A stretch of 64,000 bases of DNA from Escherichia coli (lineage in GTDB: Bacteria; Pseudomonadota; Gammaproteobacteria; Enterobacterales; Enterobacteriaceae). Location of the stretch: the NCBI RefSeq assembly GCF_051903065.1, contig NZ_CP178438.1; one strand, 5' to 3'. The first letter of the stretch is position 1. Every line of letters begins with the position of its first letter. Made by a program: the position numbers and the translations under genes. A model generated the notes under the pieces. That model had not been told where the DNA came from and made no database searches. It worked only from the letters and a program-made list of their open reading frames with translations. Positions 17,140-29,901 of the stretch are shown here, piece by piece.

Positions 17140-17426
17140 GCCAAGACTACACACAGCATAAAGTTGTGGTGCCGGGTGCCTCCCGGTGCCTGGCGAAGGT
17201 TGCACACCAGGCGGGTGGGTATCCACAGAAGGTCGACTGTCAGCCTCAACCTTAACCCGCGTGCGCTGAGCCGCATTCACCACAACGCTAAGGATTCTCT
17301 CTGGTTGAAAATACTTAGCTGTTATGTGCCTGCTTTTAGCCACATCAGGCGAGGTGGACCTAGTTATTCCCCAACAACAAGGATTCGGTTAATCTGGTTA
17401 TCCCCAACAACGCAAAAGGAAAAGAA

Positions 17427-17861
17427 ATGTCCGGTAATATCTATACGCTGTACAAATCCCACTGTGAAAATGTTGGAAAGTATCGGGGCATTGAAATCAG
17501 TGGGGTAGTGTCATCAGTCGAAATAAGCAAAGTTGAATCAAGGGCAACATTACTTACTCTTTTGGACCTTGTCTTACATGAGCACCGGAAGAAATTCGGC
17601 ACTCCCTATAATCAGTTGAATGGGAAAAAGGCTCTGGTTCACCTTATTCTGATGAAGCATCACTGGATGCCAAAACAGATTAATGAGATGAAATTTGATG
17701 AACTTCTTCTTTCAATTCAGGATGAACTCACACTTGATAAAATAAGCGTAACCGCCCAGAAATTTTTAGATTATCGAGACTGGAGATCACAAATTCATCA
17801 CTTTGATGATTTTGACGAAAATGAATGGGATCCTAATTTGTCTGCACAATATCTAAAGTAA
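17427..17861 (+). CDS. hypothetical AT-rich moron protein in immunity region
   Basis: 144 aa ORF on the opposite strand to flanking early genes; preceded by two GTTAT(T)CCCCAACAAC direct repeats. Confidence 0.55.
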   Translation: MSGNIYTLYKSHCENVGKYRGIEISGVVSSVEISKVESRATLLTLLDLVLHEHRKKFGTPYNQLNGKKALVHLILMKHHWMPKQINEMKFDELLLSIQDELTLDKISVTAQKFLDYRDWRSQIHHFDDFDENEWDPNLSAQYLK

Positions 17862-18039
17862 CATCCTGTGATAAAACCGTGATTTCCTGATCCAGTTTTT
17901 TTAAGGAGTCTATTGTTTCCTGTCGATAAGACAGCACTTCACGAAGCTGGTTTATAGCTGCCAGCTTCTTTGTCATCCACTCATAAATTTCCTCATCTGT
18001 GTAGCCAGGCGCGACGATTTTGGGTTCTGTTTTGTGCAT
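17833..18039 (-). CDS. small hypothetical protein, first gene of leftward (pL-like) transcript
   Basis: 68 aa from MHKTEPKIV with GAGGAG RBS 7 nt upstream; overlaps the 3' end of the convergent gene. Confidence 0.45.
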   Translation of the reverse strand: MHKTEPKIVAPGYTDEEIYEWMTKKLAAINQLREVLSYRQETIDSLKKLDQEITVLSQDVTLDIVQTN

Positions 18040-18098
18040 TTCACATCTCCTCAAGTTATCAGTTACTTGTTGATGGGGACCAGATTGTTAAAGAGCTA

Positions 18099-18122
18099 AG
18101 CGTCCTGTAGGGCGCTTTTTTG
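18099..18122 (+). terminator. intrinsic terminator
   Basis: AGCGTCC-loop-GGGCGCT hairpin followed by TTTTTT. Confidence 0.5.
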
Positions 18123-18196
18123 TTGCTAACGAATCATCCTGGACTTCATATGCTCCAGGCGGCTACTTCGTGGGCGTCCTGCCTGTTCGTTGTTTC

Positions 18197-19270: not shown

Positions 19271-19834
19271 ATGAGGCTAACCGTGGGTAAGCATCACTGG
19301 AAAATAGAAAAACAGCCTGAGTGGTACGTGAAAGCTGTCAGAAAAACTATCGCGGCGTTGCCGGGTGGTTACGCTGAAGCGGCTGACTGGCTCGATGTAA
19401 CAGAAAACGCTTTATTCAACCGCCTTCGTGCAGATGGCGATCAGATTTTCCCGCTGGGATGGGCAATGGTTTTACAGCGTGCTGGTGGCACTCACTTCAT
19501 TGCTGATGCTGTGGCGCAGTCTGCAAATGGCGTCTTTGTGTCTCTTCCTGACGTCGAGGATGTGGACAACGCCGATATCAACCAACGCCTGCTGGAAGTC
19601 ATTGAACAGATCGGCAGTTATTCAAAACAGATTCGTTCAGCAATTGAAGACGGTGTAGTGGAACCGCATGAGAAGACAGCAATTAACGATGAGCTGTACC
19701 TCTCAATTTCGAAGCTGCAGGAGCATGCAGCACTGGTCTACAAAATCTTTTGCGTTTCAGAAAGTAGTGACGCCCGCGAGTGTGCAGCTCCGGGCGCCGT
19801 GGCGTGTCGTGACTGTGGAGAAACTAACGCATGA
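19271..19834 (+). CDS. CII-like regulatory protein (CP76/YdaT-like), tentative
   Basis: 187 aa, position immediately after cro; family assignment from memory only. Confidence 0.45.
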
Positions 19835-20169
19835 ACAGTTTAACAACACACTACCGTCGCTCGCAACTGATTGCGCTTCCTGTACCGGGTGGAAAAGCGA
19901 AGGTGGAGTATTGCTATGCAGTAAATGTACCAGGTGACAGGGAAATTGTAACCCACAGCTTTGCAGAGTGGGCTGTGGGTGATTTCAACCGGCAGAAGGA
20001 GACAGTCCTTTGCGACAAGTTAACCGCTGGTTCAAAGATCACTACGGAGTGCCCGTCAGAGTCATTCGTTGGGAGCCGGAAACACAACGGGTTATCTACC
20101 TCCGTGAAGGCTATGAGCATGAGTGCTTCAGCCCGCTCGAACAGTTTCGTCGTAAATTCAGGGAAATAG
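19831..20169 (+). CDS. hypothetical protein, possibly frameshifted
   Basis: 112 aa ORF; an alternative frame (19983-20189) encodes ...[55 protein letters not shown], overlapping the next start. Confidence 0.35.
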
Positions 20170-20178
20170 AGGTCGGTC

Positions 20179-21120
20179 ATGAGCACTAAATTAACCGGCT
20201 ATGTATGGGATGGTTGCGCTGCGTCAGGCATGAAATTATCCAGCGTGGCAATTATGGCCCGCCTGGCTGATTTCAGTAATGACGAAGGTGTGTGCTGGCC
20301 ATCAATTGAAACCATTGCCCGTCAGATTGGCGCGGGGATGAGTACCGTCAGAACGGCTATCGCACGGCTGGAAGCAGAAGGCTGGTTAACGCGTAAGGCG
20401 CGTCGCCAGGGTAACCGCAATGCGTCGAATGTTTATCAGCTTAACGTTGCGAAGCTTCAGGCAGCGGCATTTTCTCAACTGTCAGATTCTGACCCGTCAA
20501 AATCTGACGCATCAAAATCTGACCCGTCAAAATTTGATGCGTCGAAATCTGGCAAAAAAGCGGGTTTTCACCCGTCAGAATCTGGCGGGGATCCGTCAGT
20601 AAAATCAAAACATGATCCGTCAGATAAAAAAACTTCTCGTCCGGACGCTTCGCAACCGGACACGCAGACGGCTGAACAGGAGTTTTTAACTCGCCATCCT
20701 GATGCGGTTGTATTCAGCCCTAAAAAGCGCCAGTGGGGAACGCAGGATGATTTGACCTGCGCACAGTGGCTCTGGAAAAAAATCATCGCCCTGTACGAGC
20801 TGGCCGCCGAATGTGACGGCGAGGTGGTTCGTCCCAAAGAACCGAACTGGACAGCCTGGGCAAACGAAATTCGCCTGATGTGTGTGCAGGATGGTCGTAC
20901 TCACAAACAAATCTGCGAGATGTACAGCCGCGTCAGCCGCGATCCGTTCTGGTGCCGTAACGTGCTCAGCCCGTCGAAGCTGCGGGAAAAATGGGATGAG
21001 CTTTCCCTGCGCTTATCGCCGTCCATCAGCACATACACAGAAAAACGCGAAGACCCGTATTTCAAATCCAGTTACGACAACGTGGACTACAGCCAGATCC
21101 CGGCAGGATTCAGGGGGTGA
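20179..21120 (+). CDS. replication initiation protein (O-like)
   Basis: 313 aa, N-terminal HTH region, low-complexity SKSD repeats, conserved C-terminal domain; iterons within the gene. Confidence 0.75.
   Translation: MSTKLTGYVWDGCAASGMKLSSVAIMARLADFSNDEGVCWPSIETIARQIGAGMSTVRTAIARLEAEGWLTRKARRQGNRNASNVYQLNVAKLQAAAFSQLSDSDPSKSDASKSDPSKFDASKSGKKAGFHPSESGGDPSVKSKHDPSDKKTSRPDASQPDTQTAEQEFLTRHPDAVVFSPKKRQWGTQDDLTCAQWLWKKIIALYELAAECDGEVVRPKEPNWTAWANEIRLMCVQDGRTHKQICEMYSRVSRDPFWCRNVLSPSKLREKWDELSLRLSPSISTYTEKREDPYFKSSYDNVDYSQIPAGFRG
20470..20600 (+). repeat. origin iterons within the replication gene
   Basis: Tandem CCGTCAAAATCTGA-like repeats (at least five) followed by an A-rich stretch. Confidence 0.65.
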
Positions 21121-21611
21121 GCATGAGTCTTTTGAATGAAGTTCAGAAATTCATTGAAGCCCATCCGGGCTGTACTTCCGGAGACATTGCGGATGCTTTT
21201 GCAGGTTACTCACGGCAGCGCGTTCTGCAGTCAGCAAGCAAGTTACGTCAGAGTGGGCGTGTGGCTCACCGTTGTGAAGGGGATACACGCAGACATTTCC
21301 CGCGCCTGACTGAGAGAGCGCAGGAGCCGGAACCACAACCAGTTCGTGAAACCAGACCTGTGCGCAATTTCTATGTCGGCACTAACGATCCACGGGTGAT
21401 TTTGTGCCTGACCCGCCAGGCTGAAGAACTGGAGTCCAGGGGCCTATACCGTCGTGCTGCAACGGTGTGGATGGCGGCATTCCGTGAAAGCCACTCCCAG
21501 CCAGAACGAAACAATTTTCTGGCGCGTCGTGAGCAGTGCTTACAGAAAAGCAGCAAGCGCGCTGCATCGGGTGAAGAGTGGTATCTGTCAGGGAATTACG
21601 TGGGGGCGTAA
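21117..21611 (+). CDS. PerC-like transcriptional regulator, tentative
   Basis: 164 aa; motif GLYRRAATVWMAAF resembles the PerC/Pch family as I recall it. Confidence 0.4.
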   Translation: MSMSLLNEVQKFIEAHPGCTSGDIADAFAGYSRQRVLQSASKLRQSGRVAHRCEGDTRRHFPRLTERAQEPEPQPVRETRPVRNFYVGTNDPRVILCLTRQAEELESRGLYRRAATVWMAAFRESHSQPERNNFLARREQCLQKSSKRAASGEEWYLSGNYVGA

Positions 21612-23141: not shown

Positions 23142-24137
23142 GTGACCGTGAGAGCACTACTGACCCCTGAAATAGCCCCGCGTATGGGGATCGTATTGTT
23201 CAGACCCGGTTCAGAGCTGATGCCCCTGTTTATGCAGGGGCGTGTCCTGCTGGAGCCTGAGCCGGAACGTTATTCATCTTTCGCCAGTGGTGCCGTTCCC
23301 GCGGCATCACAACCGCTGGCGGATGATCCTGCCGTTCGGGCCGTGTTCTGCAATGAGGCAGTGATCCGTCGTACTGGTGGCGTGGAATGTCTTGAAAGCT
23401 GGTTACTTCGTGAAAAGGGCTGTCAGTGGCCTCATTCCGACTGGCACAGCGAGAACATGACCACAATGCGACACGCGCCGGGCGCGATCCGTCTGTGCTG
23501 GCACTGCGATAACCAGCTGCGCGATCAGTTCACGGAACGGTTGGAATCAATGGCAACGGATAACTGTGCCCGCTGGGTGTTGTCTGTTGTGCGTCGGGAT
23601 CTCGGTTTTGATGACAGTCACGTTGTGACAATGCCGGAACTGTGCTGGTGGCTGATTCGTAATGACCTGGCGGATGCCTTACCGGAAAGTGCAGCCCGTA
23701 AGGCACTGAGATTACCGAAGCCTGTTGTGCCGTCTGTCACCCGGGAAAGTGACCTTGTTCCTTCGGTTCCTGCCACCAGCATTATCCAGGATAAAGCGAA
23801 AAAGGTGCTGGCGCTGAAAGTGGATCCAGAGTCGCCGGAGTCTTTTATGTTACGCCCAAAACGTCGCCGCTGGGTTAATGAAAAGTACACGCGCTGGGTT
23901 AAGACACAGCCGTGTGCATGTTGTGGAAAGCCTGCTGATGATCCCCACCACCTGATAGGTCACGGTCAGGGTGGAATGGGTACAAAAGCGCATGACCTCT
24001 TTGTGTTGCCTTTGTGCAGAAAGCATCACGACGAGCTGCATGCGGATACCGTGGCATTTGAAGAGATGTATGGCTCCCAGTTGGAGCTGATATTTCGTTT
24101 TATTGATCGTGCGCTGGCAATTGGCGTGCTGGCCTGA
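23142..24137 (+). CDS. DUF968 family protein with C-terminal HNH-like zinc motif
   Basis: C-terminal CACCGKPADDPHHLIGHGQGG...CRKHHDELH. Confidence 0.65.
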   Translation: MTVRALLTPEIAPRMGIVLFRPGSELMPLFMQGRVLLEPEPERYSSFASGAVPAASQPLADDPAVRAVFCNEAVIRRTGGVECLESWLLREKGCQWPHSDWHSENMTTMRHAPGAIRLCWHCDNQLRDQFTERLESMATDNCARWVLSVVRRDLGFDDSHVVTMPELCWWLIRNDLADALPESAARKALRLPKPVVPSVTRESDLVPSVPATSIIQDKAKKVLALKVDPESPESFMLRPKRRRWVNEKYTRWVKTQPCACCGKPADDPHHLIGHGQGGMGTKAHDLFVLPLCRKHHDELHADTVAFEEMYGSQLELIFRFIDRALAIGVLA

Positions 24138-24151
24138 TTTGGTGGAGAAAG

Positions 24152-24502
24152 TTGATGCGTGATATGTATGAAGTATTGGACCGCTGGGGAGCATGGGCTG
24201 CAGCAGAAAATAGTGGTGTGGACTGGCAGCCGATAGCGGCTGGTTTCAAGGGACTTTTACCACACGGTAAAAAGTCACGTCTCCAGTGTGATGATGATGA
24301 AGGCATCATGATAGATAGTTGTGTGGCTAGGTTGCGTAAATATAAGCCGGAAGAGTATGAGCTGATAATTGCTCACTTTGTTATCGGTATCTCATTACGC
24401 ACTATTGCGAAGAAGAGAAAATGCTCTGATGGGACTATAAGAAAAAAGTTGCAAGCTGCATTGGGATTTATTGATGCAGTTATATATATAATACATGGGT
24501 AA
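24152..24502 (+). CDS. Q: antitermination protein Q
   Basis: 116 aa, position upstream of late promoter and lysis genes; Q-family C-terminus. Confidence 0.7.
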   Translation: MMRDMYEVLDRWGAWAAAENSGVDWQPIAAGFKGLLPHGKKSRLQCDDDEGIMIDSCVARLRKYKPEEYELIIAHFVIGISLRTIAKKRKCSDGTIRKKLQAALGFIDAVIYIIHG

Positions 24503-24510
24503 TTTATTAG

Positions 24511-24529
24511 ACGGCCATATTGGCCGTCA
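24511..24529. terminator. bidirectional hairpin between Q and cargo operon
   Basis: Perfect palindrome GACGGCCA-TAT-TGGCCGTC. Confidence 0.55.
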
Positions 24530-25714
24530 GCTAAATAAATATGTAATAGCATAAGGCGTAAGTAAAAAGTAGAACCTAAATGTAAGATATAAGCCACATA
24601 AAACTATAATTCCTAATGAGGCAAAAACAACTTTCTGAACAAGCAATCTTGTGGTTAAACTATCAAATGTATCCTTTATATCTTCGTAAATAGCCTTGAA
24701 GTTATATTCTGCTTGTTGTTTTTTATGATTTAACTCATCATTTATTGCTGTTAAAGTTTGCCATTGATTAAATAGAACAAATAGAATCATAATAGTGAAG
24801 AACAATGCACCCAACACTACAGCTGTATTTATTAATGCTTGACTATCCCAACCATTAGCCTGCTTCATTTGAGTCGCAACGATAATTGTTGCGACGGGGA
24901 TACCTAATATCTGATTTTGTATGTCACTGAATACTTTATGTATTTTTCCCATCTCTTCTATTTTGGCTACTCGTAACTGATCCAGTATTTTCTCGTAAGA
25001 AAAACCAGAAACGAATACTTTGTATCCTTTTTGATAACTTTCATAAAGTTGTCCTAAATCCCTTAACATGAAGGAAAAAGAGGTTTCTTTAGTTTTAGAT
25101 TCACATGATGATTTTATGCTACTTGCTAAAATAGTAAGTTTTTGATCTTTATGCGTATCTTCTGCAAAGTTTGCGATCAAATTATGAATCAGATCTCCAT
25201 TAACATTCATAAGATCATCGCTAGAATAATTTACTGGAATTTTTAGTACGTTGGATTCGACGAATACCAATTCAAAATTTGTTTCATCTAAATAAGCAGA
25301 ACAATCTTTGAATAAAGTAATTAAGCTCAAAACATCTCTGTACTTGGATATAATAGCAGGCGACTTTTTATCCCTGTTGTGATAATTAAGTTCGATTATA
25401 AAGAAGTTACTGGCTTCCTTTATCCTATTTTTAGGATTTTTTAAATACTCATTAAAAGAGAAATGTAGCTGCCCCAATCGTAATTTGGGGGGGGTTATAT
25501 GTAAGGTTATAGTTTGGCCTAACTCAATGTTGCCAGATTCAAGGGTGATGCCAAAATCATGGGGATTCTCTGTGATATCGTTGATGATGTCACAGAGCTC
25601 CTCGTTTGAAAGAATGAGTGATGCTTCAGATAGGGTACCTGCAAATGTAGCGGCCTTGTAAATAGTCACTAAGTCTTTGAAGGTTCTCTGATTGTTACTG
25701 CTCATCCTCTTCAC
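24527..25714 (-). CDS. membrane protein with two C-terminal TM helices (candidate effector)
   Basis: 395 aa; hydrophobic helices ALINTAVVLGALFFTIMILFVLF and VVFASLGIIVLCGLYLTFRFYFLL; AT-rich by eye; start overlaps upstream gene stop. Confidence 0.7.
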   Translation of the reverse strand: MKRMSSNNQRTFKDLVTIYKAATFAGTLSEASLILSNEELCDIINDITENPHDFGITLESGNIELGQTITLHITPPKLRLGQLHFSFNEYLKNPKNRIKEASNFFIIELNYHNRDKKSPAIISKYRDVLSLITLFKDCSAYLDETNFELVFVESNVLKIPVNYSSDDLMNVNGDLIHNLIANFAEDTHKDQKLTILASSIKSSCESKTKETSFSFMLRDLGQLYESYQKGYKVFVSGFSYEKILDQLRVAKIEEMGKIHKVFSDIQNQILGIPVATIIVATQMKQANGWDSQALINTAVVLGALFFTIMILFVLFNQWQTLTAINDELNHKKQQAEYNFKAIYEDIKDTFDSLTTRLLVQKVVFASLGIIVLCGLYLTFRFYFLLTPYAITYLFS

Positions 25715-26729
25715 CTAATTCTGATAAAATCTCTGATCTTAGCGTATCCGGAATCTCGGTAAGTATCAATTTATCGTTTTCTGAATCATAAAGAACGCTG
25801 CCATCATGCAAGGCCGCACGCTCGAATTTCAGAGACCAATGTTTGGACTTTCCTTTGAAACTAACAAGCCCACGTATAACGTTGCCATCAGGCACGAACC
25901 CATCAGAGAACTCCAGATCGTCATTGGTTAACTTTTCAACTAACAACTCAGGAGCAGTTGGCCATATCTCGTTTGCAAAAACTTGAGTGTCGAAAGCTTC
26001 ACCAGAACGATTTAAATTTTTTAATTTTTCATGAGCCTTATTTAGGAACTCTTCACGTGCCTCTGGTTCAAAACCTCTTTCAGTAGCAAATTCTAAAAGT
26101 GCATTCCGTAATTTTGTTGTTTCTTGTTTGGCAATTAGAATATCGTTACAACCTAAAAACTTTTTGAAATAACCTGCTACTGAATTTTGCCCCTTTAGAA
26201 AGCTAATATATCTCTCTTTGCCATTCTGGCGCCCAGTTAAGTCAATTCGTCCCGCTACTCGAAGTTTAGCAATGTCTAGATATTCACTTTCTTGAATTTC
26301 AAAATCGTGGACTGAAGAGCCAACTGCTGATGTTAGGATTGCAACCATCAAATAATGATTTCCATTTACCTCATTATGGGCAATTATTACATAACCACCA
26401 GTAGACATTGATTCATCATCGGCTCTGGCTTTTAAATGATTGATCATTCGGATACTAGTATCATAAAAACTATGTGTTTTATTTACGAAATAATCATCAA
26501 CGATATTACCCATAGGGTAACTATCGCGGTCATCTTCAAATTTACCATATCCTTTACCTGCTCTCCCAGAGTACCTTTCAGTAAGTGCGTTAGAGAGGTC
26601 TTTTGATGCTTGCTGAACAGGTTTTTCTGAAGGACAAGGAATAATGGTGGCTAACCCCTGTTGTTCCTTGTTCATAATGTGAACAATAAACTTATGAGTG
26701 ATATTAGTGGGGGTCGCTGATGCAGTCAT
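25695..26729 (-). CDS. NdpA/YejK-like (NA37 family) nucleoid-associated-type protein
   Basis: 344 aa; collinear motifs with E. coli YejK as recalled (YLMVAILTSAVGS, DIAKLRVAGRIDLT, RYISFLKGQ); AGGA RBS upstream of ATG. Confidence 0.65.
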   Translation of the reverse strand: MTASATPTNITHKFIVHIMNKEQQGLATIIPCPSEKPVQQASKDLSNALTERYSGRAGKGYGKFEDDRDSYPMGNIVDDYFVNKTHSFYDTSIRMINHLKARADDESMSTGGYVIIAHNEVNGNHYLMVAILTSAVGSSVHDFEIQESEYLDIAKLRVAGRIDLTGRQNGKERYISFLKGQNSVAGYFKKFLGCNDILIAKQETTKLRNALLEFATERGFEPEAREEFLNKAHEKLKNLNRSGEAFDTQVFANEIWPTAPELLVEKLTNDDLEFSDGFVPDGNVIRGLVSFKGKSKHWSLKFERAALHDGSVLYDSENDKLILTEIPDTLRSEILSELGEEDEQ

Positions 26730-26845
26730 AACAACATCCTTTTAATGGTTTTGAACAATTGGTGTTGATAATACTTCAAAAAATACTAATGCGTACGCAA
26801 AAAATACAGTACTCTGTTAAGAGTGGTTACTTCGCCACACAGCTT

Positions 26846-26875
26846 AAACCCGCCGTCGAGCGGGTTTTGTCGTTT
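26846..26875 (+). terminator. tR'-like terminator of the late leader transcript
   Basis: AAACCCGC-CGTCGA-GCGGGTTT hairpin followed by a T-rich tract, upstream of the holin gene. Confidence 0.55.
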
Positions 26876-27019
26876 CTGGGCTTTGGTATTCGTTGGGCTT
26901 GGTCTATCTAGCTCTTATCCATTGGCTCGGCTTCTTTTACGTTTCCGCTTCTGATTTGCGGTTCGTGGTACTCCCTCAATTTGCACCTCTTGTATCGGCG
27001 AGGTGAGAGATAACTACAA

Positions 27020-27346
27020 ATGCCTCATAACCCAAATACCTGGCTGGAGTTGGTCCAGAGCTGGTGGCGTGGAGACACACCGCTGGGCGCAGTGATTATG
27101 TCGATTGTTATGGCTGGTTTGCGCATTGCCTATTTTGGCGGTGGTGGTGGCTGGAAGCGAAAAACACTCGAAATTCTACTCTGTGGCGCTCTGACGCTGA
27201 CTTTTGCATCCGCTCTTGAGTATGTCGGATGGCCTAAATCGCTTTCTGTTGCCATTGGTGGTGGGGTGGGGCTGATCGGTGTCGATGCTATTCGTGGGGC
27301 TGCAATGAGAGTAATCGGTAATAAGTTTGGTGGCTCTAAGGAGTAA
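27020..27346 (+). CDS. holin
   Basis: 108 aa small membrane protein with TM segments, directly upstream of endolysin. Confidence 0.8.
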   Translation: MPHNPNTWLELVQSWWRGDTPLGAVIMSIVMAGLRIAYFGGGGGWKRKTLEILLCGALTLTFASALEYVGWPKSLSVAIGGGVGLIGVDAIRGAAMRVIGNKFGGSKE

Positions 27347-27349
27347 TTT

Positions 27350-27826
27350 ATGCAGGTACTAAATTCCCAGCGTAAAGCTTTCCTCGATATGGTGGCATGG
27401 TCAGAAGGAACGGATAACGGGCGACAACCGACACGTAACCACGGTTATGATATTATTGTTGGTGGTGAACTATTCACTGATTACTCCGATCACCCTCGCA
27501 AACTTGTCACGCTAAACCCCAAACTCAAATCAACAGCTGCAGGCCGTTATCAACTTCTTTCACGCTGGTGGGATGCTTACCGCAAGCAGCTTGGGCTGAA
27601 AGACTTCTCTCCAAAAAGCCAGGATGCTGTGGCATTGCAGCAGATTAAAGAGCGTGGCGCTTTACCGATGATTGATCGCGGCGATATTCGTCAGGCTATC
27701 GATCGTTGCAGCAATATCTGGGCTTCACTGCCGGGCGCTGGTTACGGTCAATATGAACATAAAATAGGTGACCTGATTGCCCGATTCAAAGAGGCTGGCG
27801 GGGTGGTAAATGAAGTTGAGCTATAA
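27350..27826 (+). CDS. R: endolysin (lambda R-type lytic transglycosylase)
   Basis: 158 aa, NSQRKAFLDMVAWSEGTDNGRQPTRNHGYDIIVGGELFTDYSDHPRKLV close to lambda R. Confidence 0.92.
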   Translation: MQVLNSQRKAFLDMVAWSEGTDNGRQPTRNHGYDIIVGGELFTDYSDHPRKLVTLNPKLKSTAAGRYQLLSRWWDAYRKQLGLKDFSPKSQDAVALQQIKERGALPMIDRGDIRQAIDRCSNIWASLPGAGYGQYEHKIGDLIARFKEAGGVVNEVEL

Positions 27827-28202
27827 GCTGGTTATCGCAGCATTCTTCTCTACTGTCATCGGTTCTTTCATCTGGTCTGCTAACCACTACTACAGCAAAT
27901 ATCAGCACGAAAAGAAACGTGCTGATGAGGCTGTACAAAATGCTGAATCCGCAACCGCTATTACCAATAATGTCCTGCAATCACTGCAAATCGTCAATAC
28001 AGTTCTGGAGGCTAACCAGCATGCAAAACAGCAGATCGCACTGGAGTCACAGAGAACCCAGGAAGATATCAAAGTGGCTGTTGAGAATGATGATTGCGCT
28101 TCCCGTCTTGTTCCTGCTCGTGCAACTGAGCGGCTGCGCCGGTACGCGGACAATTTACGTACCAGTTCCGGCGGTACCACTACCGGCGAACCTGACCGCT
28201 GA
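27810..28202 (+). CDS. Rz: i-spanin Rz
   Basis: 130 aa, N-terminal TM then coiled-coil; overlaps the endolysin end. Confidence 0.8.
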   Translation: MKLSYKLVIAAFFSTVIGSFIWSANHYYSKYQHEKKRADEAVQNAESATAITNNVLQSLQIVNTVLEANQHAKQQIALESQRTQEDIKVAVENDDCASRLVPARATERLRRYADNLRTSSGGTTTGEPDR

Positions 28203-28344
28203 AACCCCACAGCCAGCTATTCCTGATCCGCTGACTTACAGAGATAGTCTGGATTTAAACGTGAGCCTGCTGTCAGTGCTGGCTGCCTGTAATAGGGATA
28301 AGGCTGATATTCGTAAAATTGAAGCAGAGAAGAGTGAGCCATGA
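28087..28344 (+). CDS. Rz1: o-spanin Rz1 (lipoprotein, overlapped architecture)
   Basis: Starts within Rz in the +1 frame; signal peptide with lipobox LSGC; Pro-rich. Confidence 0.65.
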   Translation: MMIALPVLFLLVQLSGCAGTRTIYVPVPAVPLPANLTAETPQPAIPDPLTYRDSLDLNVSLLSVLAACNRDKADIRKIEAEKSEP

Positions 28345-28538
28345 AGCAGTAAAGTGGAAAGATCGCAGCAAGAAGTGCCTGTTCAGAATTAATGAAGATG
28401 CCTCAAATACCTAAAATAGCGAGTAGCCAGATGCACGTCAACTACGAGTGTGTGGCCAGCATAACGTTGTATAAACTAAGTGATAGCAGAGTTCAATATA
28501 CGTATACTGAGAGAACTATTTCTATTTGAGAACTGAAA

Positions 28539-29132
28539 ATGACGGACTATACTTTTTTTTACTGGATAGAGATGCTTCTTAAAGAAGGCAATGTTTTATT
28601 TATTGTTCTTGCTTGTTTGATTGTCTTTTTTACTTTAAAAAAAGAAATAATAATGGTTTTAGGTCGTCTTAATACAGTTAAGCTAGGTGACTATGAGATT
28701 AAATTTAAAAAAGAAATGTTTGAAATAGAATCTAAAAGTATAGAGGTTATTAAAAATTTACCTGGAACAAATCCTGTCCTGCCGACACAACTCATTGAGA
28801 ATTTCAATATTTTTGAGAGTCTTGCTAGTACTCAGCCTAATGTTGCTGTACTTTCAGCTTGGCGCGAATTGGAGTTAACCGCTATAACGCTTGCATCTAA
28901 AAAGGGGGTTGAGATCAACGGGACATCTTTAGGGCGGGCTTCAGGTATCGCTGCCTTGAAAAATGTCCAATCTGCAAACAAAATTTCTAGTGACATTGTT
29001 AAGCTTTATGAAAAAACAGGAGAGTCTATTAAGCCTATATCCCAAGGAAAGCTCTTATGTACTCAGGAAGATGCTTTGGCATTCTGTAAGAATGCAAAAA
29101 GACTTAGCAATTATTTAACATCCATATTTTAG
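28539..29132 (+). CDS. hypothetical membrane-anchored moron protein
   Basis: 197 aa, N-terminal TM helix (VLFIVLACLIVFFTL), AT-rich by eye. Confidence 0.55.
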   Translation: MTDYTFFYWIEMLLKEGNVLFIVLACLIVFFTLKKEIIMVLGRLNTVKLGDYEIKFKKEMFEIESKSIEVIKNLPGTNPVLPTQLIENFNIFESLASTQPNVAVLSAWRELELTAITLASKKGVEINGTSLGRASGIAALKNVQSANKISSDIVKLYEKTGESIKPISQGKLLCTQEDALAFCKNAKRLSNYLTSIF

Positions 29133-29174
29133 TATGTATCCATAGAGCATCCATTATTATTGGAGTAGTCGTTA

Positions 29175-29201
29175 CAGCAGGCATTCACTGAGTGCCTGCT
29201 G
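29175..29201. terminator. bidirectional hairpin between convergent moron genes
   Basis: CAGCAGGCA-loop-TGCCTGCTG inverted repeat. Confidence 0.5.
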
Positions 29202-29208
29202 CTGAACT

Positions 29209-29421
29209 CTAATAGCAAGATGGAGAATCTGCATTAAATTTTTGAGAGAGATTACTTATTTCATTCACTCCCTTATGATTAAGTAATAGCCTAATATTTT
29301 CTGGAGCCTTGAATATAAATGGGCCTTTTAGATCCTCGATGATTCCTCCTGCGACGCAGATCAAATGCTTGAAATCAACATCTTCAATTGTGGGCTTGGA
29401 GTCCAGATTATCGCTTGTCAT
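29209..29421 (-). CDS. small hypothetical protein
   Basis: 70 aa ORF convergent with the preceding moron; AT-rich. Confidence 0.4.
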   Translation of the reverse strand: MTSDNLDSKPTIEDVDFKHLICVAGGIIEDLKGPFIFKAPENIRLLLNHKGVNEISNLSQKFNADSPSCY

Positions 29422-29550
29422 TTAAAAACATCCTTTCTTGCCATTAGCAGCATTGAGCATGTTATGGAATCTGTAATTTAGGATGCTGGTACTACCAGTA
29501 CTTTTTTTGTTTCATTTTGTGAATCACCTCATTTACGAGGGGAGCCTATC

Positions 29551-29901
29551 ATGCCACCACGAACACCAAAAGCCTGCCGTGTTCGCGGCTGCCGCTCTAC
29601 AACCACAGACCCTTCAGGCTACTGCGAAAGCCACAAAAGCGAAGGCTGGAAGCAATACAAAACTGGACAATCCCGTCATCAGCGCGGCTACGGTTCGAAG
29701 TGGGACAGTATCCGCGCGCGTGTCCTGAAGCGTGACAAAGGCCTGTGTCAGTTATGTCTGCGTGCTGGTGTGGTGCGTGAGGCGAAGACCGTTGACCACA
29801 TCATCCCTAAATCGCATGGCGGCACTGATGTCGACAGTAATCTGCAGAGTTTGTGCTGGCCGTGTCATAAGGCGAAGACGGCCCGTGAACGGCTGAAGTA
29901 A
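29551..29901 (+). CDS. HNH endonuclease (terminase-associated)
   Basis: 116 aa with Cys-rich N-terminus and HNH core (VDHIIPKSHGG...CWPCH), directly upstream of the terminase genes. Confidence 0.85.
   Translation: MPPRTPKACRVRGCRSTTTDPSGYCESHKSEGWKQYKTGQSRHQRGYGSKWDSIRARVLKRDKGLCQLCLRAGVVREAKTVDHIIPKSHGGTDVDSNLQSLCWPCHKAKTARERLK

Follow-up and report, generated by a model that had tools for sequence, protein, structure and literature searches.

The window, namely the whole 64-kb stretch of DNA analysed here, is a segment of the Escherichia coli chromosome (dinB, pepD, proBA and a tRNA-Thr gene) followed by a prophage, which is integrated beside the tRNA-Thr gene. The early-right region of this prophage contains, in order, a CII-like gene (19271-19834), a small gene without assigned role, an ORF of 313 aa (20179-21120), a PerC-family gene (21117-21611) and a gene with a LexA-type DNA-binding domain, after which RusA, KilA-N and DUF968 genes lead to the antiterminator Q. 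The initial annotation had considered the 313-aa ORF an O-like replication initiator harbouring repeats, and the ORF indeed matches the PHROG family phrog_391, ‘replication initiation O-like’, with an E-value of 2.8e-134, the repeats lying within 20179-21120. Its nucleotide identity is 99.4% to gp41 of the Shigella phage SfIV and 98.4% to SfII. The gene is widespread: it is found in 1575 of 5426 complete E. coli genomes (coverage of 80% or more) and is also carried by the serotype-converting Shigella phages SfII and SfIV. Its current annotation is only ‘helix-turn-helix domain-containing protein’ or ‘primosomal protein.’ The phage and E. coli records of the gene carry no origin feature, the SfIV genome paper describes the replication module with no mention of an origin, and the titles and abstracts searched on CPS-53/yfdO and HTH_36 point to none. 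The gene and the parts of its product are the following:

20179-21120, plus strand: O-like replication initiator gene, 313 aa, containing the putative origin region (ORF list, PHROG, Pfam, nucleotide match to SfIV gp41)
20179-20481, plus strand: winged-helix N-terminal DNA-binding domain, aa 1-101, presumed reader of the iterons (Pfam, AF2, Foldseek)
20482-20646, plus strand: linker, codons 102-156, predicted to be disordered and encoded by the putative origin DNA (AF2)
20647-21117, plus strand: lambda-O-like C-terminal domain, with a folded core at about aa 160-280 (BLASTP, tblastn, AF2)

The N-domain contains a Pfam match to HTH_36 at aa 23-70, together with weaker matches to GntR, MarR, DnaD_N and RP-C, and no Pfam match to Phage_rep_O. 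An AlphaFold2 (AF2) model of the initiator, built on an alignment of 14 sequences, gives for this domain helices at aa 20-31, 43-50 and 54-66 and a beta wing at 70-73/85-88, with block pLDDT values of 72-85 except in the wing loop (61 for aa 71-80, with residues 79-81 below 50). Foldseek searches against the PDB returned for the N-domain only generic winged-helix dimers of the MarR/ArsR type, all of them weak (all E-values above 0.001), and no match for the C-domain; a sequence search of the PDB with the initiator gave only marginal MarR matches (E about 0.008). Winged-helix proteins of the MarR/ArsR kind bind palindromes as dimers. The linker, aa 102-156, has pLDDT values below 50 and no secondary structure in the model (block means of 31-34 for aa 101-150), with both flanking domains modelled confidently, and this segment predicted to be disordered (20482-20646) coincides exactly with the repeats described below. 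The C-domain, which is covered by no Pfam family, is helical in the model, with block pLDDT mostly of 81-94 and a dip to 67 at aa 211-220. By BLASTP it is 30% identical to lambda O (E 3e-25), in an alignment that begins at aa 70 and is meaningful only from about aa 130, and by tblastn it is about 35% identical to many lambda/Stx O genes over aa 131-277. Furthermore, the motifs WG..DL..A.W, NW..WAN.IRLM..DGR and FW..NVLSP.KLR.KW are kept between the C-domain and lambda O.

The repeats that had been placed at 20470-20640 are found there, with the start of the array refined to 20473. Tandem Repeats Finder reports over 20488-20551 a period of 15 (4.3 copies) and a period of 30 (2.1 copies, 88% match), and repeat finding gives six copies at spacings of 15, 15, 15, 15 and 33 bp. 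The 13-mer GTCAAAATCTGAC, with two or fewer mismatches, occurs at 20481, 20496, 20511, 20526, 20541 and 20574, and just once more in the rest of the 64 kb. Likewise, the 14-bp dyad TCTGA-N4-TCAGA (two or fewer mismatches) has six sites inside 170 bp; the largest clusters in 200 shuffles averaged 1.9 sites and reached at most three. Exact matches to TCTGA-N4-TCA[AG]A (three) and to TCA[AG]A-N-TCTG[AG] (four) are confined to the array within the window. The dyad consensus is TCTGAC-NN-GTCARA, the array being readable as alternating half-sites TCTGA and TCARA, and the encoded peptide is SDSDPSKSDASKSDPSKFDASKS. The initial claim of at least five tandem repeats is thus borne out by five tightly spaced copies and one isolated copy, for which the 14-bp dyad is the better unit. 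The elements of the array and of the A/T-rich part that follows it are listed here:

20473-20547, no strand: five 14-bp dyads, S0-S4, at an exact spacing of 15 bp (repeat searches, 13-mer scan, dyad shuffles, unit profile)
20473-20486: dyad S0, TCTCAACTGTCAGA
20488-20501: dyad S1, TCTGACCCGTCAAA
20503-20516: dyad S2, TCTGACGCATCAAA
20518-20531: dyad S3, TCTGACCCGTCAAA
20533-20546: dyad S4, TTTGATGCGTCGAA
20548-20565, no strand: A-rich spacer, TCTGGCAAAAAAGCGGGT, opening with a lone left half-site (least conserved part in the alignment of the relatives)
20566-20585, no strand: isolated iteron, TTTCACCCGTCAGA, followed by A-TCTGG (nearly invariant in seven relatives)
20590-20637, no strand: two 24-bp direct repeats, each with a GATC + CCGTCAG head and then A/T-rich, proposed as a DNA-unwinding element (repeat family D7, GC profile)
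20590-20613: first 24-mer, GATCCGTCAGTAAAATCAAAACAT
20614-20637: second 24-mer, GATCCGTCAGATAAAAAAACTTCT

The element TTTT(C/G)ACCCGTCAGAATCTGG at the isolated iteron is conserved across the clade of the window, and a variant of it in clade C, TTT(C/G)ACCCTCCAGAATCTGG, is present in two to three copies at a spacing of 33 bp (contigs L099 and L113). A weaker copy of the dyad lies at 20611 (CATGATCCGTCAGA), and a GATC-headed element at 20587 (GGGGATCCGTCAGT) has four mismatches and was hence left out of the site count. Within the initiator ORF there are, in this way, five dyads and one to three further sites, spread over 20473-20624.

Directly downstream of the repeats there is the A/T-rich tract, which had been described as an A-rich stretch and proves to be more structured than that, consisting of the two GATC-headed 24-bp direct repeats. 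The GC content reaches its minimum, 0.30, at 20600-20639, the most A/T-rich 40 bp of the initiator gene, and GATC sites are present at 20590 and 20614; the tract is short, about 40 bp. The sequence GGGGATCCGTCAGTAAA(A/T)TCAA in the 24-mers is almost invariant among relatives, with two to three such 24-mers in other clades. No DnaA box (within one mismatch) and no IHF consensus was found within 20470-20640; the same scan revealed that TGATCCACA occurs twice within the 24-mers of some relatives.

The conservation of the array was studied in relatives from annotated phages, namely Klebsiella Kp4873-4 (hereafter Kp4873), Yersinia YeP1, Citrobacter phiNP and ‘Elizabethkingia’ EKP1, and in IMG/VR contigs retrieved with the EKP1 homologue, which gave the needed diversity. 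A scan of IMG/VR with the protein of the window returned only loci that are 99-100% identical and therefore unusable for divergence tests. In all the relatives these half-sites recur as an array in the corresponding position although the peptide differs: the repeats are read as SKSD in the window, SDSD in the EKP1 clade and DRSD in the L099-type contigs. Codons 98-153 were compared with codons 1-95 in 15 relatives by means of a protein-guided codon alignment. The amino-acid identity is lower in the repeats (e.g., 0.75 vs. 0.87 in Kp4873), whereas the fraction of identical codons among identical amino acids is higher there in all 15 relatives, ranging from 0.64 to 0.95 against 0.27 to 0.49 in the N-domain. 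This synonymous excess has a Fisher p below 0.05 in 14 of the 15, reaching 5e-9, and the remaining contig, L089, gives p = 0.075.

The profile of the repeat unit, obtained from 49 contiguous 15-bp units of nine phages, points in the same direction. Information is high at the half-sites, positions 1-5 and 10-14, with the third-codon positions 3 and 12 at 1.75 and 1.59 bits, and it is lowest at positions 6-9, the centre of the dyad (0.57-1.04 bits), though these include first and second codon positions. The protein alignment of the relatives is rich in indels in the repeat segment, and relatives differ in length by complete units (15, 24 or 33 bp), each divisible by three. Among 68 near-identical haplotypes, polymorphism per site is 0.084 in the origin region and 0.082 in the N-domain, with no indels, so that this shallow divergence reveals no extra constraint on the origin region. 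On the deeper comparisons, selection acts on the DNA of the repeats and not on the peptide that they encode. The synonymous sites, the dyad profile and the disorder predicted by AF2 for the linker indicate that the peptide repeat is a passive read-out of the DNA sites; of the low-complexity SKSD repeat noticed in the initial annotation it holds, therefore, that the array encodes it, but it appears to be no feature in itself, being a by-product of the DNA sites. The comparison with related O genes had been proposed as a check, with repeats not conserved in relatives counting against an origin; it shows the DNA of the repeats to be more conserved than the protein would require.

Relatives that share only one half of the gene define the boundary of the conserved module:

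20624-20657, no strand: mosaic junction, with the module of N-domain and putative origin on one side and the C-terminal module on the other (ends of similarity to phiNP and mEp460_4F5)

Similarity to phiNP, which has the same N-domain and repeats and another C-terminus, stops at query position 479 (20657), and similarity to mEp460_4F5, which has another N-domain and other repeats, begins at query position 446 (20624). The C-terminal half is shared with mEp460_4F5 (96.6% nucleotide identity) and with HannyBb (59% amino-acid identity). Both of these carry at the same place an unrelated N-domain, four to five repeats of the TCCATCGGGTCAAAATG type and an A/T-rich tract of their own; Stx phage 24B and Salmonella phage SI5, in which the HTH_36 domain is only 43-46% identical, have repeats of the GGGGCAGGAGCTGCCC type instead. 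Conversely, the N-domain and repeats of the window are joined to three different C-termini: the lambda-O-like one (window and Kp4873), Phg_2220_C (a Pfam match in phiNP, with the same type of C-terminal sequence in YeP1 and contigs L136-L143) and the EKP1 type, after which a Toprim-domain gene comes next. The repeats, located in the linker between the two domains, co-vary with the N-domain. Both the dyads and the A/T-rich element are under selection at the DNA level and are inherited together with the winged-helix N-domain; judging from these exchanges, the putative origin travels with the domain presumed to read it, which is the classical lambdoid pattern.

Taken as a whole, the sequence evidence makes it highly probable that this region is the replication origin of the SfII/SfIV-type lambdoid prophage, located where its own initiator gene encodes the linker. 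If ori-lambda and iteron plasmids are a guide, a dimer of the N-domain would sit on each 14-bp dyad. The centres of the two half-sites are 9 bp apart and both thus lie on one face of the helix, which, together with a variable centre that a dimer would not contact, favours one dimer per 14-bp dyad. The alternative framing TCARA-N-TCTGA is less likely as the binding unit, because it would set the half-site centres at a distance of only 6 bp and leave the variable positions between sites. Five dimers at 15-bp spacing, each rotated by about 150 degrees with respect to its neighbour, could form, together with the downstream sites, a nucleoprotein complex resembling an O-some, which may distort the DNA and melt the adjoining A/T-rich 24-mers. 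The replicative helicase would next be brought in by the lambda-O-like C-domain, a step that is the weakest of the model and a conjecture, and activation may be aided, as in lambda, when the gene is transcribed rightward from the early promoter.

The main competitor of an origin is a purely regulatory role of the repeats, in which they would be initiator-binding sites for autoregulation, for a roadblock to the early-right transcript, for titration or for copy control of the handcuffing type, replication starting elsewhere in the prophage. In fact, what the conserved DNA and its co-variation with the N-domain prove is a function of the DNA that is tied to the initiator, and not firing; the lack of DnaA and IHF sites in 20470-20640 and the shortness of the A/T-rich tract also agree with such a role, and plasmid iterons serve copy control as well (PMC4980987). 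Nevertheless, the conserved order of sites, A/T-rich repeats and domain junction parallels ori-lambda point for point, the A/T-rich 24-mers are conserved together with the sites, and the motif forms no second cluster in the 64-kb window, so that we regard regulation alone as improbable. Far less credit is due to the idea that the repeats are a low-complexity SKSD peptide linker generated by slippage and devoid of any function in the DNA. The segment is predicted to be disordered, its length shifts between relatives by whole repeat units of five codons and its amino-acid sequence is poorly conserved, all of which such a linker would share; however, conservation at synonymous sites is roughly double that of the folded domain and that of amino acids is lower, the third-codon positions of the half-sites are nearly invariant with the variability sitting at the dyad centre, a peptide repeat has no need of the palindromic form of the units, and the half-sites outlast the changes of the peptide.

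The smallest chance of all is left to a synonymous constraint imposed by some other overlapping feature, such as an ORF in an alternative frame, an mRNA structure or a recombination ‘linker’ at a mosaic boundary. Alternative-frame ORFs of 60 aa (plus strand) and 55 aa (minus strand) do span the repeats, but an overlapping ORF was rejected because no alternative frame stays open throughout all 17 relatives. As a single sequence, the RNA of the region folds better than shuffled ones (z = -4.6), as tandem palindromes necessarily do, and the substitutions between relatives break pairs; the RNAalifold covariation term is +2.79, i.e., penalising, with a compensatory change in three of 44 pairs and in none of those in the repeat helices, so that an RNA structure was rejected for absence of covariation despite the z-score. 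The mosaic junction at 20624-20657, which might suggest a recombination linker, lies downstream of the array, and a recently exchanged patch would be expected to show few non-synonymous differences too, whereas amino-acid identity here is below that of the flank. An origin within the initiator gene remains, in our opinion, the reading that best accounts for the region.

The design in which the origin is found inside the initiator gene is known from ori-lambda (PMC7466680, PMC6022878). The origins of lambda and of Stx phages comprise iterons and an AT-rich tract, lie centrally in O and are bound by the O protein as dimers (PMC7466680). The parallel with ori-lambda drawn in the initial annotation extends to position, the repeats occupying codons 99-153 here and the four annotated lambda iterons, of their own type and at the same place, codons 117-145. 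Lambda and the Stx phages 933W and P27 likewise have dyad repeats and then an A/T-rich tract in the linker between N- and C-domains, a homologous C-domain (30-35% identity), and an N-domain and iterons exchanged as one module. There are, however, clear differences. The initiator of the window has the C-domain homology of the lambda O family, but its N-domain is HTH_36 in place of Phage_rep_O; the sites are 14-bp dyads at a tighter spacing of 15 bp, and not 18-bp sites that begin every 20-24 bp; there are six to eight of them instead of four to six; and here the A/T-rich part is made of two GATC-headed 24-mers and no P gene is present. The O-like genes of mEp460_4F5, HannyBb and Stx phage 24B have the same layout of domain, repeats, A/T-rich tract and domain at the same position, and differ in the N-domains and repeats, of the TCCATCGGGTCAAAATG type in the first two and of the GGGGCAGGAGCTGCCC type in 24B.

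Gene 18 of phages P22 and L has repeats of its own, which are taken as the origins of these phages (PMC8022706). Its product is also a distantly O-like initiator with short imperfect repeats in the coding region (PMC8022706), but the repeats are different (in L, TGTCCAACGGA in six copies), and P22 and L encode a DnaB-type helicase (gp12) beside the initiator, which the prophage of the window does not. The iteron plasmids pSC101, RK2, R6K and pPS10 likewise combine one winged-helix initiator, an iteron array, an adjacent A/T-rich element and reliance on the host helicase (PMC4980987). HTH_36 Rep proteins have been reported in plasmid REP modules (PMC3832669), and those of Paracoccus plasmids have the domain type of the initiator of the window. 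In iteron plasmids, unlike here, the rep gene does not normally contain the origin, which includes DnaA boxes (none being found in 20470-20640), and the iterons are usually direct repeats of about 17-22 bp bound by monomers, in contrast with the palindromic units of the array. With no origin annotated in the records and none in the SfIV genome paper, the region would be a new instance of a familiar design: on the sequence comparisons, its repeats are almost certainly the sites bound by the initiator and the part that unwinds, in the textbook ori-lambda arrangement, which makes it a sound but unsurprising example.

The loading of the helicase is the step in which the prophage departs most visibly from lambda. 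A tblastn search of the window with lambda P gave no match, and the annotations of SfIV and of the E. coli prophage include neither a helicase nor a loader or primase. Beside the initiator there is no helicase-delivery gene, the next gene being that of the PerC family; in Kp4873 two ORFs come directly after the initiator, the first resembling, in its sequence motifs, a Dam-type methylase and the second a putative RusA, and a DNA adenine methylase gene is annotated directly 3′ of the initiator in YeP1, phiNP and mEp460_4F5. Given that the prophage has no gene for a P-like loader, a helicase or a primase, the helicase-loading step is conjectural, and host DnaB-DnaC is probably recruited, either directly or through a partner. 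Direct recruitment, as in iteron plasmids (PMC4980987), would be the most economical guess. A bolder proposal, which we put forward only tentatively and consider rather unlikely, is that the initiator, of the lambda-O type, works without a loader and its origin fires in the manner of a plasmid, with direct DnaB-DnaC recruitment, that the GATC-headed 24-mers are a methylation-sensitive unwinding element under Dam/SeqA control and that the tight dyads, which would set each dimer on nearly the opposite face from its neighbour, build a different O-some. Control of the 24-mers by Dam/SeqA would explain the methylase genes found after the initiator in several relatives.

The loader-less layout and the GATC-headed 24-mers, near the methylase genes of the relatives, are the only leads towards novelty, and the missing helicase loader is the sole point that could teach how C-domains of the lambda-O type recruit the replisome. 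Apart from this, the putative origin gives annotators of this very common prophage family a concrete cis-element, can serve for the construction or inactivation of replicons taken from such prophages and helps in reading prophage induction data. Furthermore, it is a clean illustration of the fact that selection at the DNA level can write the sequence of a protein linker.

Across the whole prophage, no gene for a helicase or primase, nor a P-like or DnaC-like one, was found to accompany the lambda-O-type initiator. One gene flanks it on each side. The upstream one, assigned to its family from the PGAP annotation of related genomes, overlaps the start of the initiator gene and ends 11 bp inside it, and the downstream one carries a PerC domain at its C-terminus, its N-terminal half having no assigned family; the counterpart in phage mEp460_4F5 is 97% identical.

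Genes flanking the initiator (window coordinates)
20010-20189, + strand, 59-aa DUF4222-family ORF
21117-21611, + strand, 164-aa PerC-domain protein, next gene after the initiator

The same small DUF4222-type gene precedes the initiator of "Elizabethkingia phage EKP1" (OM284015.1), whose host on record belongs to the Flavobacteriia. The initiators of EKP1 and of the E. coli prophage are 48% identical, and TCTGAC-CC-GTCAGA dyads are common to both.

Two other segments of the prophage hold ORFs that matched nothing in Pfam or PADLOC. One, at 17357-18128, lies between the repressor and the early-left genes; it is small and variable, and the related E. coli MIN10 prophage differs here. In the other (~24133-29551), the gene of antiterminator Q (24152-24502) is immediately followed by an ORF on the opposite strand; this segment is mostly missing from a closely related E. 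coli prophage, in which only ~0.76 kb (26993-27750) is matched. Because of this absence, the 395-aa ORF is a candidate for accessory cargo (a moron).

ORFs of the two segments (window coordinates)
17427-17861, + strand, 144-aa ORF
17833-18054, - strand, 73-aa ORF
24527-25714, - strand, 395-aa ORF

Within the origin, the A/T-rich 24-mers of the EKP1 and L099 clades read GATCCACAAG and contain twice the sequence TGATCCACA, matching the DnaA box at 8/9 positions. In its place the window clade carries the initiator half-site GATCCGTCAG, and no DnaA box occurs in the window-clade 24-mers.

Segments with the DnaA-box-like sequence (locus coordinates)
L005 (EKP1), 1977-2009
L089, 1677-1706
L099, 1698-1730
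L113, 1716-1748

A DNA adenine methylase gene lies at or near the slot right after the initiator in several relatives, being annotated in YeP1, phiNP and mEp460_4F5 and inferred in Kp4873 from an unannotated ORF. Neither the window prophage nor SfIV has one after the initiator, and the SfIV paper likewise remarks on its absence from SfIV.

DNA adenine methylase genes of relatives, annotated or inferred (locus coordinates)
L002, 2451-3260
L003, 2977-3501
L004, 2369-3250
L146, 3486-4139

GATC heads each 24-bp A/T-rich origin repeat of the window (20590 and 20614). Together with the methylase gene that follows the initiator in relatives, these GATC-headed 24-mers suggest that the origin may be linked to methylation.
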